Source: an uncultured Rickettsiales bacterium (GTDB taxonomy: Bacteria > Myxococcota_A > UBA796 > UBA9615). Taken from it: 64,000 nt of DNA. A program made the translations under genes and the position numbers. Below are positions 6,468-23,196 of the stretch, piece by piece. Position 1 is the first letter of the stretch. The number at the start of each line of letters is the position of its first letter. The stretch lies in the NCBI GenBank assembly GCA_964490445.1, contig CAZBDA010000017.1, positions 148-64,147 on the forward strand, in the 5' to 3' direction. The notes under the pieces are model-generated. The model had not been told where the DNA came from, did not search any database, and worked only from the letters and a program-made list of their open reading frames with translations.

Positions 6468-7778
6468 ATGCGTCGTATCTCCCTCCTTCTCGCGATCCTG
6501 TTTGCTGGCCTGAGCGTGCTGGCTGTCGCCTGCATGCCCATCCCGGTTACAGACGATGATGACGATGACGACGACACAGGCGGGATCTCCTGCGCAACGG
6601 CGGACGATGCCTGGAATGTCTGCGCTGCAGTCACCGGACTGCCGACACCTCCGCCATTCTGCGCCTCGCTGGCAGCAGGCACCATCGGCGCGGACTCCGA
6701 CTGGGGTTGCATCGCCTCGATCCTGGGCAACTGGGATTGCGCCAGTGGCCTGCCCTCGAGCCTCGATGAGTTCGGCACCTGCATCAACCTCGACCCCGGT
6801 GGTGACGACGACACCAGCGGCGACGACGACACCAGCGGCGACGACGACACCAGCGGCGACGACGACACCTTCGGCGACGACGACGACTCGGTGCCGAGCG
6901 GTCCGTGCAGCGACGACACATCCGAGCCCAACAACGACTTTGCCAGTGCCACTCCGATCGCCACCGGCTTCCACAGCGGCTTCGTGTCCTGTCCCGACGA
7001 CGAGGACTACTTCTCGATCACCGTCAATGCGGGAGAAGTCATCAACGTAGAGGCTCTGTTCATTGATGCCGAAGGCGACATCGACATCAAGCTCAAGAAC
7101 ATCGAGGACACCAACCTCGACAACAGCTCTTCTTCCTCTGACAACGAGGACCTGGCCTACGTTCCCGAAGTCACCGGCACGTACTACATCCACGTAAAAC
7201 TATTCGCAGACGCAGGAGACGCTGTCGGCAACCCCTACAGCCTGACGATCTCGTCCGGCGCGGTGCCCCCCGAAAATTGTTCCGACGGAATCGACAACGA
7301 CCTCGACGGCCAGACCGACTGCCTTGACAGTGACTGCGCCTCGCAGCCCGACTGCCAGTGCCCAACCGACTCCTTCGAGACAAACAACGGCGCCGACGTC
7401 GCCTCGGCCATCACGCTGGGTTCCCACAGCGGCCTCAGCGTCTGCACAGGGGACGAAGACTGGTACAGCTTCTCGGCCAGCGGCAACCTGACGATCAACG
7501 TGACCTTCATCGATGCCGAAGGCGATGTCGATGCCTACGTCTACGACGCTGCAGACTTCTCCGCCGGATTCGACCCGGCCTCTCTGCCGACTTCACTCTC
7601 CCTGGGAGCCAGCGTCTCCGACGACGAAGAGCTGACCCACAATCCCAGCACTGCGAGCAACCCGGGCAGTGGCAACTACATCCTGCGAGTCAAGCTGTTC
7701 GGCGACGACGACAGCAGCAACTGCACGATTTGCGCGACTGGCAACTCCTACGGCCTGACGATCGCAACCGGCCCCTAG
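6468..7778 (+). CDS. acidic secreted lipoprotein with poly-Asp tandem repeats, a Cys-rich module, two pre-peptidase C-terminal (PPC) domains and a TSP3-like Cys/Asp motif
   Basis: Signal peptide [22 protein letters not shown] (lipobox), then D8. The repeat DDDTSG x4. Two PPC domains of the form SxPNNDF..A..I....G.....D.DWYSF. Motif [22 protein letters not shown]. Confidence 0.75.
6803..6886 (+). repeat. 18-bp in-frame tandem repeat (gacgacgacaccagcggc, about 4.5 copies) encoding DDDTSG
   Basis: Seen directly in the DNA. Confidence 0.9.
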
Positions 7779-7866
7779 CAACTTCCGGCCGGCGCGCTAA
7801 CATCCCCAACTCCGCGAGCCTGCCAGGCATGGCTCGCCAACCGTTGGCAGTCCGGAGATTGAGCCC

Positions 7867-9531
7867 ATGACAAATACCGAGGCAACCCGACCGGGCCGCC
7901 GCGCCGTTCAACTCGGTGAGTTGGCCGTGCCCGCCACCGAGGTCAGTCTCTCGGACGGTACGCAGACCCACCTGTACAGCACAGAAGGACCCCAGGGTTT
8001 CGATCCGAAGGATGGTCTGCCGCATCGGCGCAAGGAATGGACCGCCCGACGAGTGGAGCGGGGAGACAGCAATTTCTCGCAGATGCACTGTGCAAGAAAT
8101 GGCGAGATTACCGAAGAGATGAAGTTCGTCGCCGTGCGCGAGGGCATGAGCCCCGAGTTCGTGCGCGACGAGGTGGCACGAGGCCGCGCCATCATCCCGG
8201 CGAACATCCATCACCCTGAGATGGAGCCGATGATTATCGGCCGCAACTTCCTGGTGAAGGTCAACGCGAACATCGGCAACTCGAAGGTCCTCTCCAGTAT
8301 CGATGCCGAAGTCGAAAAGCTGCAATGGGCTGTGCGCTGGGGCGCCGACACGGTCATGGATCTCAGCACCGGCGAGAACATCCACGAGACCCGCGAGTGG
8401 ATCCTGCGCAACAGTCCGGTACCCATCGGCACCGTGCCTCTCTACCAGGCCCTGGAGAAGGTCGGCGGCATCATCGAAGACCTCAACATCGACATCTACA
8501 TGCAGACCCTCGAGGAGCAGGCCCGCCAGGGAGTCAGCTACTTCACGATCCACGCCGGCGTTCTGCTGCGCTCCATTCCGCTGACAGTGGACCGGGTGTG
8601 CGGCATCGTATCGCGCGGTGGATCAATCATGGCGAAGTGGTGTCTTGCCCATCACCAGGAGAACTTCCTGTACAGCCACTTCGACGACATCTGCGAGTTG
8701 ATGAAGCGCTACGACGTGGCCTTCAGCCTGGGGGACGGACTGCGACCCGGCGCGGTGGCCGACGCCAACGATGCCGCCCAATTCTTCGAATTGCAGGTAC
8801 TCGGCGAGTTGACCCAGAAAGCCTGGGAGCACGATGTACAGGTGATGATCGAGGGGCCCGGACATGTGCCGCTGCACAAGATCCCTGAGAACGTCGAGCG
8901 ACAACTCGAGGTCTGTCACGAGGCGCCCTTCTACACCCTCGGGCCACTGGTTACCGACATCGCGCCAGGCTACGACCACATCTCCTCGGCAATCGGCGCG
9001 GCGATCATCGCCCAGCACGGCACAGCGATGCTCTGCTACGTCACGCCGAAAGAACACCTCGGCCTTCCCGACCGCGAGGACGTGAAGGACGGCATGATCG
9101 CCTACAAGATCGCTGCACACGCGGCCGACCTCGCCAAGGGTCATCCCGGGGCGCAGGAGCGCGACGATCTGCTCAGCAAGGCACGCTTCGAGTTCCGTTG
9201 GCGTGACCAGTTCGAGCTCGGAATCGACCCGGCGAAGGCCGAGGAGTACCACGACCAGACCCTCCCCGCAGAGGGCGCGAAGACCGCTCACTTCTGCTCG
9301 ATGTGCGGTCCCTCCTTTTGCGCTTACCGCATCAGCCAGGACGTCAACGAGATGGCCGCCGAACAAGGTCTCGTATCACTGAGCGGAGCGAAGCCGGATC
9401 CCCAGCAGGCGCCAGGCTCGAGCGAGGAAGTCGCCGAAGGTCTACGTCGCAAAGCCCAAGAGTTCCGAGACGTCGGCAGTGAGCTGTATGTACCGGTCTC
9501 CGAAGAGCCTCTCCCCAGAAACTCCACCTGA
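7867..9531 (+). CDS. thiC: phosphomethylpyrimidine synthase
   Basis: C-terminal CSMCGPSFC cluster, a conserved ThiC core ([29 protein letters not shown]) and about 554 aa. Confidence 0.95.
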
Positions 9532-22495: not shown

Positions 22496-22548
22496 CCTAC
22501 GCTCCGCCCGAAATCAGGAGGGGATGGAACGGAAGTAAACGGGCTGCC

Positions 22549-23196
22549 CTAGTCGTCCAGTTCCAGCCATACCTTGCCGGCGTAGGGACGAGTCCACTGA
22601 CCCGGTGTCGCACCATCCCACTGCAGGAGGATGTACCCGTCATCGAGAAAACCAATCGAGGAATAGTGGGAAACATCGTTGGTCCAGGAGTTCTCTTCGG
22701 TAACCTCGCCATTGAACTGCAGCGATGAGGTCACCTCACCGCCAAGCTCGAAGTTGTAGACCTGCTGGGTCCAGCCGACCTCACATTCGCCATCTGCCTG
22801 GTACGAGCCATCTTCTTCCACCTCGAGCCCAAGCTCACCTTCGCAGAACACCTCTGGCTCGTCTTCGTCCCACGACTCCGTCAACATGACGAGGTAGCCC
22901 TCGTACTCACCGGTCAACTCGTGCTCGGTGTCGTCGCCATCATCGTCGTCGTCATCATCGTCGTCACCCGGACCATCGTCGCCACCGGAGCCGTCGTCGC
23001 CACCGGAGCCGTCGTCGCCAGAGGAGCCGTCGTCGCCAGAGGAGCCGTCGTCGCCAGAGGTGCCGTCACCGTCGTCACCGCTCGCGTCGCCGGGACCATC
23101 GATCACCAGCACACCACTGGCGAGGCCATTACAACCCGCCAACAGTACCGCCAGGGGCAGAACAAGGACAAGAAAGAAGCTGCTGCTGATTTTCAT
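22549..23196 (-). CDS. acidic secreted lipoprotein with a poly-Asp/Gly-Ser repeat linker
   Basis: Leader MKISSSFFLVLVLPLAVLLAGC. The repeat GDDGSS/GDDGSG x5, then D9. Acidic C-terminal domain. Confidence 0.65.
   Translation of the reverse strand: MKISSSFFLVLVLPLAVLLAGCNGLASGVLVIDGPGDASGDDGDGTSGDDGSSGDDGSSGDDGSGGDDGSGGDDGPGDDDDDDDDDGDDTEHELTGEYEGYLVMLTESWDEDEPEVFCEGELGLEVEEDGSYQADGECEVGWTQQVYNFELGGEVTSSLQFNGEVTEENSWTNDVSHYSSIGFLDDGYILLQWDGATPGQWTRPYAGKVWLELDD
22929..23075 (-). repeat. 18-bp in-frame tandem repeat (about 5 copies) plus a GAC/GAT run encoding GDDGS[SG] and poly-Asp
   Basis: Seen directly in the DNA. Confidence 0.85.

Follow-up and report, generated by a model that had tools for sequence, protein, structure and literature searches.

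Aspartate-rich tandem repeats with locus-specific units in exported proteins, mostly predicted lipoproteins, of uncultured marine bacteria

The DNA analysed here, referred to as the window, is a stretch of 64,000 nucleotides (contig CAZBDA010000017.1, positions 148 to 64,147, assembly GCA_964490445.1) from an organism deposited as an uncultured Rickettsiales bacterium and placed by GTDB in Myxococcota_A. It contains five genes, numbered 1 to 5, which combine an export leader, an in-frame tandem repeat encoding an Asp-rich peptide and a domain that differs from gene to gene (the cargo), together with a sixth gene, for a PLD-like lipoprotein, which carries a short acidic start. Their features are listed below, with the repeat arrays as called across the window by Tandem Repeats Finder (TRF); lengths are in amino acids (aa) or base pairs (bp).

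6468..7778 (+): gene 1, 436 aa; leader and lipobox LAVAC at 6468-6533
6552-6575 (+): D8 run of gene 1, beginning at +8 from the Cys
6576-6803 (+): 76-aa segment of gene 1 with 7 Cys, between the D8 run and the repeats
6804-6890 (+): (DDDTSG)n repeat of gene 1; TRF array 6804-6884, 18 bp x4.5, 96% matches
about 6999-7196 (+): PPC-like domain 1 of gene 1 (Pfam)
about 7272-7355 (+): acidic double-disulfide motif of gene 1
about 7410-7775 (+): PPC-like domain 2 of gene 1
12724..13809 (+): PLD-like lipoprotein, 361 aa; lipobox VLMGC, Cys codon 12802-12804
12805-12834 (+): acidic start GPQDDDQDDN of the PLD-like lipoprotein, no tandem repeat
17149..18351 (+): gene 2, 400 aa; signal peptide 17149-17259, ending LLLLAGADC
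17293-17370 (+): acidic double-disulfide-like motif CSDGADNDGDRLYDCDDPHCFGAPAC of gene 2, resembling NF033662 by eye only
17379-17513 (+): (DDDS[AL]G)n repeat of gene 2; TRF array with the same limits, 18 bp x7.5
about 17545-18345 (+): RCC1 propeller of gene 2, six RCC1_2 repeats (Pfam)
18411..19439 (+): gene 3, 342 aa from a GTG start; leader and lipobox AMTGC at 18411-18461
18509-18573 (+): (DDDDSNxG)n 24-bp repeat of gene 3; TRF array with the same limits, 24 bp x2.7
18600-19436 (+): cargo of gene 3, three ~90-aa repeats of no known family
22549..23196 (-): gene 4, 215 aa; leader and canonical lipobox LLAGC at 23131-23196
22930-23067 (-): (GDDGSS)n 18-bp repeat of gene 4, then a D9 run; TRF array 22956/22976-23067, 18 bp x5.1-5.6
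22552-22905 (-): small acidic domain of gene 4
63254..64000 (-): gene 5, C-terminal 248 codons; the full protein has 342 aa in a second contig (L005:491-1519)
63875-64000 (-): (DDDDSAG)n 21-bp repeat of gene 5, running on past the window; TRF array 63875-63998, 21 bp x5.8, truncated at the window end
63257-63874 (-): cargo domain of gene 5

The five arrays are the only ones in the 64 kb with a TRF score above 100, and all of them encode Asp-rich peptide in exported proteins. Translation placed each array in frame within its open reading frame (ORF) at the coordinates listed; the in-frame tandem repeats of 18, 18, 24, 18 and 21 bp which an earlier note, made from the bare sequence, had described in these five genes were therefore confirmed by both routes. 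As all five unit lengths are divisible by three, slippage would alter the length of a tract and leave its reading frame intact. Searched as a DNA pattern, (DDDxxG)2DDD has 9 matches in the window, against 0.00 expected from shuffled sequences. The encoded units are DDDTSG in gene 1, DDDS[AL]G in gene 2, DDDDSNxG in gene 3, GDDGSS in gene 4 and DDDDSAG in gene 5. The single formula (DDD[ST]xG)n proposed for them does not describe genes 3 and 4, and what holds for all five is the presence of an Asp-rich tract.

The repeat units also differ from locus to locus at the DNA level, in codons and in their order, in agreement with the view of the earlier note that they are independent. Its further idea of a shared module failed as regards homology: leader DNA and 120 bp upstream of it, aligned locally in pairs across the five genes, reached z scores of at most 4.2 with short CTG runs only, and pairwise comparison of the five leader peptides found no significant similarity. 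A shared cassette was thus ruled out, the leader and upstream alignments having returned nothing but CTG-rich hydrophobic codons. Given the lack of DNA homology in leaders and units, what recurs is an architecture and not a cassette, and the sequences indicate that this feature is a convergent compositional one which arose independently at each locus. The cargo is likewise unrelated, as had been claimed: two PPC-like domains, six RCC1_2 repeats and three ~90-aa repeats are among the domains attached, their comparison with each other found no similarity (best E 0.3), and genes 3, 4 and 5 have no match in Pfam.

In all five leaders K/R precede a hydrophobic stretch of 10-15 residues, as in a signal peptide with a basic n-region and a hydrophobic h-region. 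The lipobox was assigned by rule only ([LVI][ASTVI][GAS]-C, small residue at -1); LLAGC of gene 4 is canonical, and AVAC (gene 1), MTGC (gene 3), LYAC (gene 5) and LMGC (the PLD-like protein) pass a relaxed, PROSITE-like form of it. GADC of gene 2 violates the rule through its Asp at -1, and its AGA|D resembles a signal-peptidase-I site. Lipoprotein leaders had been claimed for all five genes, and by the rule this stands for genes 1, 3, 4 and 5 and falls for gene 2; lipid modification of the tract genes is predicted from that rule. The PLD-like protein, missing from the earlier list, is a minimal form of the tract architecture. Counted from the Cys, the first [DE]3 lies at +2 in gene 2, +5 in the PLD-like protein, +8 in genes 1 and 5, +18 in gene 3 and +57 in gene 4, where the first DD is found at about +20.

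Across the window, a D-rich tract is present in 4/9 lipobox ORFs and in 1/33 others (p = 0.005). Lipobox candidates devoid of an acidic tract are 886-1341, 1363-3858, 9541-11637, whose lipobox (FTPAC) is doubtful, and 35149-35850. The second of these (+ strand) is an 831-aa lipobox protein (LLGGC) in which Chlamydia-PMP and beta-helix repeats come after five putative metal-binding motifs of the MopE type; its D residues come from structured motifs, not from low-complexity repeats.

The repeats had been said to follow the leader immediately. This is not so in genes 1, 2 and 5, where small N-terminal modules precede the repeats, an arrangement that points to their use as linkers. The two halves of gene 1 align with 36% identity (E 2e-15), and its residues 270-297 score 37.5 bits against NCBIfam NF033662, under the curated cut-off of 41; this NF033662-like acidic double-disulfide motif is distinct from the Asp repeats. 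Gene 2 is ordered as C-DDD, a 26-aa acidic double-disulfide-like motif, the repeats and the RCC1 propeller. The three internal repeats of the gene 3 cargo recognise one another with E values of 7e-15 and 8e-10, and an AlphaFold2 model of this cargo from the single sequence was unusable, with a predicted local distance difference test (pLDDT) score that was low throughout (mean 42). In gene 4 a short conserved segment, NGLASGVLVIDG, stands between lipobox and repeats. The N-terminus of gene 5, recovered from identical contigs, reads MKFLYHLLLVLLLSLTVGLYAC-APAAST-DDDD..D21..FDFNGLTFALQLT..(DDDDSAG)n; the leader, which carries GLYAC, the D21 run and the non-acidic island FDFNGLTFALQLT all lie outside the window.

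Leader, lipobox and an acidic tract all persist in orthologues with 45-77% identity, the tract having other units or other lengths (13 to about 115 aa). The expectation that homologues would keep leader and lipobox held for P0006, P0007, P0133, P0134 and three paralogues on contig L131. In the gene 5 family, P0006 (72% identical) has the same leader and lipobox and is joined to its cargo by APSPTGDDDDAGT alone, P0007 (70%) has a different lipobox leader and 8-aa units, DDDDSAA[AS]G, and P0009 has a D11 run. The related metagenome-assembled genome (MAG) GY13CH_bin.27, whose isoleucyl-tRNA synthetase (IleRS) is 67% identical to that of the window and whose synteny is conserved, holds three tandem gene 5 paralogues at the matching position (L131:15371-18612), each made of a lipobox, DDDD, a poly-D of 13-15, an island and (DDDDS[SA]G)n. 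The island of this family (the segment given above for gene 5, or ETTFSGTLTV) is conserved and non-acidic, separates two acidic tracts and may be a strand docking on the cargo domain; an AlphaFold2 model of P0007 with an 8-sequence alignment, which bears on this docking, had a mean pLDDT of 35, low throughout, and was unusable.

For the gene 4 cargo, a word-indexed homologue search found no relatives, and HMMER, run exhaustively against 1.8 billion representative proteins, found 3. The two full-length ones, P0133 and P0134 (about 50% identical), keep the leader, the lipobox and the xDLxSGTLxIG segment, and their units are TVTDDDD and GDDDTAS, compared with GDDGSS in the window. An exact-sequence cluster look-up matched gene 3 alone. 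Since units turn over in orthologues that retain the tract, its place and presence are conserved, and its sequence and length are free.

Length also varies within the population. Contigs from ENA, JGI and Logan assemblies, at least 99.8% identical and with 0-6 substitutions per 2.4-21 kb, were compared over 15-21 kb, and all insertions and deletions (indels) among them were whole repeat units. The slipped-strand length variation anticipated by the earlier note is consistent with this, whole-unit indels being the only ones found. The gene 4 tract is longer by 18 bp in ENA SAMN10231912 and JGI 3300008952, and the short allele occurs in the window and in JGI 3300007513, so that the five-unit and six-unit alleles are each present in at least two assemblies. 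A deletion of 18 bp, equal to one DDDSAG unit, at 17425 in the gene 2 tract was seen in a single assembly, JGI 3300008952, and the gene 1 tract showed no indel in any of the six assemblies with the complete 436-aa gene. The sole indel outside the Asp tracts is a loss of 9 bp, also in JGI 3300008952, from the poly-Ala tract (GCCGCAGCC units, 14296-14315) of 13918-14406 (+), a 162-aa protein with no Pfam match. In-frame repeat-length polymorphism of this kind is usually discussed for pathogens; the population described here is marine and free-living.

Contig ends of L002, L003, L126, L127 and L141 fall in or at the tracts (22926-23067, 17470, 6878), and gene callers picked internal starts, giving gene 3 as 335 aa from Met-8 and gene 2 as 363 or 369 aa. 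Asp tracts hence break short-read assemblies and mislead start-codon calls.

On a broader scale, (DDDxxG)2DDD was scanned in one genome per species, 185,579 species in total. At least 116 (DDDxxG)n loci were found, and among the matches listed 69 belong to 14 MAG assemblies and about a dozen further loci to MAGs labelled Myxococcota. The 14 MAGs (L007-L122; CAZITQ, CAZBPN, CAZOYV, CAYTBN, CAYRNR and others) are marine, with a GC content of 0.60-0.72, and are labelled 'uncultured Rickettsiales bacterium', 'Deltaproteobacteria bacterium RS363' (Tara Red Sea) or 'uncultured proteobacterium'. GY13CH_bin.27 is the only MAG with a pattern match that was linked to the lineage of the window; for the 14 main MAGs no such link was found. 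The IleRS of the window belongs to a discrete, MAG-only clade, with 64-86% identity inside and at most 55% to the next sequence, whose members are named 'Deltaproteobacteria bacterium' or 'Proteobacteria bacterium' in NCBI; the assignment to Myxococcota was not confirmed by it. The MAGs labelled 'uncultured Rickettsiales bacterium' have a GC content of 0.66-0.72 and genes rich in MopE, FG-GAP and RCC1, and this label on high-GC MAGs looks like a taxonomy-mapping error.

The typical N-terminus in the 14 MAGs consists of a signal peptide, L(L/A)GC, P, x(1-8), DDDD, xxG and DDD, and roughly one third of their lipobox ORFs start as Cys-(Pro)-x(1-8)-DDD. Among ORFs of the MAG loci that had not been selected by the pattern, an acidic N-terminal tract is present in 18/58 with a lipobox, and a D-rich tract occurs anywhere in 14/221 of the others. 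At the same time, some proteins, for example in L047, L087, L100 and L111, carry Asp repeats internally or near the C-terminus, behind a signal-peptide-like N-terminus that has no lipobox. The tracts are thus enriched at lipoprotein N-termini and not exclusive to them; the notion of a tract specific to lipoproteins survives as an enrichment, and fails for such internal and C-terminal linkers.

Two further occurrences lie outside these groups. In the archaeon Natronococcus roseus (L059, 2753-2797, -) DDDGNG repeats come right after the Cys of a Tat-type leader (RRRFL) with lipobox AMAGC, an architecture that is apparently of convergent origin. Just past the end of the window (L004:58-1797), a TPR protein has an Asp-rich N-terminus, DDDDYYDDDDYGEDDE, followed by a basic stretch and a hydrophobic segment. 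Its Asp-rich stretch is probably cytoplasmic, and not every Asp-rich tract of the organism would then lie in an exported region.

The tracts could be a neutral by-product, slippage-prone GAC-rich repeats having expanded in linkers of exported proteins that tolerate insertions. The fast turnover of units and their whole-unit polymorphism agree with such an origin, as do P0006, which is nearly without a tract, and the poly-Ala tract of an unrelated gene, which varies likewise. Neutral slippage as the whole explanation is nevertheless improbable: every array scoring above 100 encodes Asp-rich peptide in an exported protein, an acidic tract persists at the same place in orthologues despite the replacement of its units, the association with lipobox N-termini is strong, and the majority of the loci, among the matches listed, are concentrated in 14 of the 185,579 species genomes.

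The position of the tracts calls for a comparison with the lipoprotein export signal (LES) of Bacteroidota. In the MAGs with D-repeats, tract onset has a median of 5 residues past the Cys; 32/41 tract-bearing lipoproteins have their first DDD at +4..+12. At least three D/E fall within +2..+12 in 37/41 of these and in 13/44 others, a tract-free set in which the lipobox rule admits about 8 false positives; Pro occupies +2 in 49% and 20%, respectively. Cargo differs too. Tract-bearing lipoproteins of the MAGs carry a wide range of domains: MopE, LTD and a beta-lactamase fold, and, as hydrolases and domains of the propeller or adhesin type, GH31, PI-PLC, C25 peptidase, arylsulfotransferase, FG-GAP, NHL, RCC1 and LamG. 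ZnuA, a PstS-like binding protein, Amidase_3, GH25 and multihaem cytochromes are found among the lipobox ORFs that have no tract. All this would suit an acidic stretch beside the lipidated Cys that acts as an LES-like cue for surface exposure or for outer-membrane vesicles, the long repeats extending the signal, and such a role is compatible with that of a tether.

The LES of Bacteroidota has been described as C-X-K-(D/E)2-X, and shifting it by one residue or more impairs export (PMC5080379). Vesicle-enriched Bacteroides lipoproteins which bear it have a mean isoelectric point (pI) of 4.86 and S(D/E)3 by the Cys, and are mostly hydrolases (PMC6222051). The likeness is that a large share of the lipoproteins has an acidic cluster just past the lipidated Cys (PMC5080379, PMC6222051, PMC10319031), with acidic, hydrolase-type carriers and periplasm-type non-carriers; here, too, the tract-bearing cargo is the most acidic, as in the Bacteroides vesicle lipoproteins (PMC6222051). 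However, the LES comprises 3-5 residues at a fixed and critical position with K/Q/S before them, whereas the tracts begin anywhere from +2 to beyond +20, after Pro at +2, and are 13 to more than 100 residues long, much more than a signal requires. The acidic clusters of the window and of the MAGs do not follow the rule of (D/E)2-3 at +3..+6 after K/Q/S, onset in the MAGs being spread over +4..+12, and K/Q/S is lacking ahead of the acidic residues. Moreover, DNA tandem repeats encode the tracts, which are also found inside proteins and in non-lipoproteins, gene 2 included; the phylum is a different one, no export machinery was identified, and surface exposure is putative. An LES-like cue is, on these grounds, rather unlikely.

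The acidity extends beyond the tracts. In the MAGs, tract-bearing cargo has a median K+R of 3.7%; the other ORFs with a lipobox reach 6.2% (p = 5e-5) and the remaining ORFs 10.4%. In the window, cytoplasmic proteins have a median pI of 5.8 and 10-12% K+R, and exported cargo has 1-4% K+R with a pI of at most 4.05, the RCC1 domain of gene 2 (4.97) excepted. The Lys/Arg-depleted exported set covers 886-1341, 1363-3858, 6468-7778, 12724-13809, 17149-19439, 22549-23196 and 63254-64000. The acidity is a compartment-wide bias of the exported proteome, with the Asp tracts as its extreme. A salt-in halophile proteome as its source was ruled out by the ordinary pI and K+R of the cytoplasmic proteins, so that the acidity belongs to the exported proteome.

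Such polyanions might in themselves be the functional element, as binders of high capacity and low affinity for Ca2+, Mg2+, other metals or mineral and particle surfaces, in the manner of calsequestrin or of biomineralisation proteins, which could stiffen or attach the cell. The tracts contain Asp runs from D3 to D21, they occur together with acidic, Cys-framed motifs thought to bind metal (MopE, acid_disulf_rpt), and sea water supplies millimolar Ca2+ and Mg2+. The unit of gene 1, DDDTSG, fits the first half of the DxDx[DNS]G calcium loop; against the EF-hand-like pattern D-x-[DNS]-x-[DNS]-G with coordinating residues downstream, it was alone in fitting the first six positions. Most units misfit a coordinating loop, among them TVTDDDD as well as DDDSAG, GDDGSS and DDDDSAG, and a hydrophobic residue at position 8 and Glu at 12 are lacking. 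Furthermore, the unit is not conserved in orthologues, which argues against a defined site, and any polyanion condenses cations, so that binding may be incidental. As their primary function, cation binding is accordingly judged quite unlikely.

The reading preferred here, with a probability of roughly 55%, is that the Asp tracts are disordered polyanionic tethers and inter-domain linkers of exported proteins, mostly lipoproteins. The functions proposed in the earlier note, a surface tether, Ca2+ binding or an anionic spacer, are plausible. The tract would sit between the lipidated Cys, or a small N-terminal module, and the globular cargo. Being strongly negative and free of Lys, Arg and hydrophobic residues, it would stay extended and soluble, be poorly cut by proteases of the trypsin type and carry Mg2+/Ca2+ in sea water, and such a tract would keep the cargo at some distance from the membrane. 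At each locus it would be made and resized by replication slippage, or by unequal recombination, acting on near-perfect repeats in frame. What selection seems to maintain is composition and approximate presence rather than sequence. Disorder would agree both with the composition (D, S, G, A and T only) and with the free turnover of units. Composition and precedent likewise suggest the extension, the spacing function, the loading with cations and the location in the envelope.

Several points weigh against this interpretation. Both AlphaFold models (pLDDT 35 and 42) were uninformative on the tracts. The choice of Asp over the usual Pro, Thr, Ser or Gly of linkers is unexplained by a pure spacer, and so is an onset 4-12 residues past the Cys after Pro at +2. 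In P0006 the acidic link has only 13 aa, which indicates that a long tract can be lost and that tract length may matter little. Finally, as short-read contigs break at the tracts, part of the length variation could be an assembly artefact.

Precedents for parts of the tether architecture exist, and the Asp-tract proteins belong to none of these families, from which they differ by sequence, position or paralogy. The closest is the H.8-type arrangement of Neisseria, where Lip, Laz, AniA and the BCCP peroxidase have an AAEAP low-complexity linker after the lipid-modified Cys (PMC10094543). Both systems share a lipid Cys, a linker of imperfect repeats, unrelated domains and dispersed genes. The Neisseria linker is rich in Ala, Glu and Pro, with one unit in all members, whereas the present tracts are Asp-rich with a unit that differs per locus, and often have a small module between Cys and repeat; they occur, moreover, in an uncultured marine lineage. 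For about half of the lipoproteins in the outer membrane of Escherichia coli, the N-terminal linker is disordered, and Lol sorting depends on the length and disorder of these linkers rather than on their sequence (10.1101/2021.01.05.425367). RcsF, Pal and NlpD resemble the tract proteins in the unstructured segment that leads from lipid anchor to folded domain, but E. coli linkers are neither polyanionic nor tandem repeats, and have no known length variation in populations.

Size variants of the Vlp lipoproteins of Mycoplasma hyorhinis arise by in-frame expansion and contraction of repeats (PMC3569356). In-frame repeats with a copy number that varies in the population are found here as well, in genes 4 and 2. 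The Vlp genes are clustered, phase-variable paralogues with conserved leaders, whose repeats make up the C-terminal surface region and the whole protein and are no linker to a domain; unlike them, the present genes are dispersed and non-paralogous with N-terminal repeats, and the five are not clustered paralogues with conserved leaders. LbpB of Neisseria and Moraxella is a surface lipoprotein with a long Asp/Glu-rich low-complexity region without rigid tertiary fold (PMC11022072), and the likeness lies in this anionic region on a lipoprotein. In LbpB it is a helical-prone insertion inside a lobe of one family and traps cationic peptides of the host, whereas the tracts stand near the N-terminus or between domains, in many unrelated proteins, and the organism is marine and free-living. 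The literature searches made for Asp-repeat lipoprotein linkers found no earlier description of them. The novelty is a linker which is Asp-based, has locus-specific units in N-terminal or inter-domain position, is lineage-wide in uncultured marine bacteria and is length-polymorphic in nature.

A more speculative extension, against which the odds are clearly set, is that this high-GC marine lineage, with MAGs filed as 'Deltaproteobacteria', 'Proteobacteria' or 'Rickettsiales', uses a hitherto undescribed lipoprotein code, Cys-(Pro)-x(1-8)-Asp(>=3), in about one third of its lipoproteins, serving two purposes, one of them a slippage-tuned, polyanionic, cation-loaded brush. If so, variation in brush length would lead to population-level variation in the reach of surface enzymes and adhesins. 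The signature, a lipobox with an Asp tract within about 10 residues, splits the lipoproteins of the lineage by cargo type and charge, and this two-class split provides a testable hypothesis on sorting and surface architecture in diderms beyond Proteobacteria, Spirochaetes and Bacteroidota.

Some minor observations concern the remainder of the window and its relatives. Genes 2 and 3 are neighbours on the same strand (17149-19439). In Deltaproteobacteria bacterium OFTM289 (L108, about 320-2390, -) a single 924-aa lipobox protein with DDDDSG repeats fuses gene 3-like domains with gene 2-like RCC1 repeats. This fusion and the adjacency suggest that the products of genes 2 and 3 may act together. 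Rfam, at the gathering threshold, and tRNA scans of the whole 64 kb found no family and no tRNA gene. A TonB-like protein with a TonB_2 C-terminal domain is encoded at 40457-41518 (+), with a Glu/Pro-rich spacer of 12-bp repeats at 40657-40697, and the presence of this C-terminal domain in the window points to a diderm envelope.

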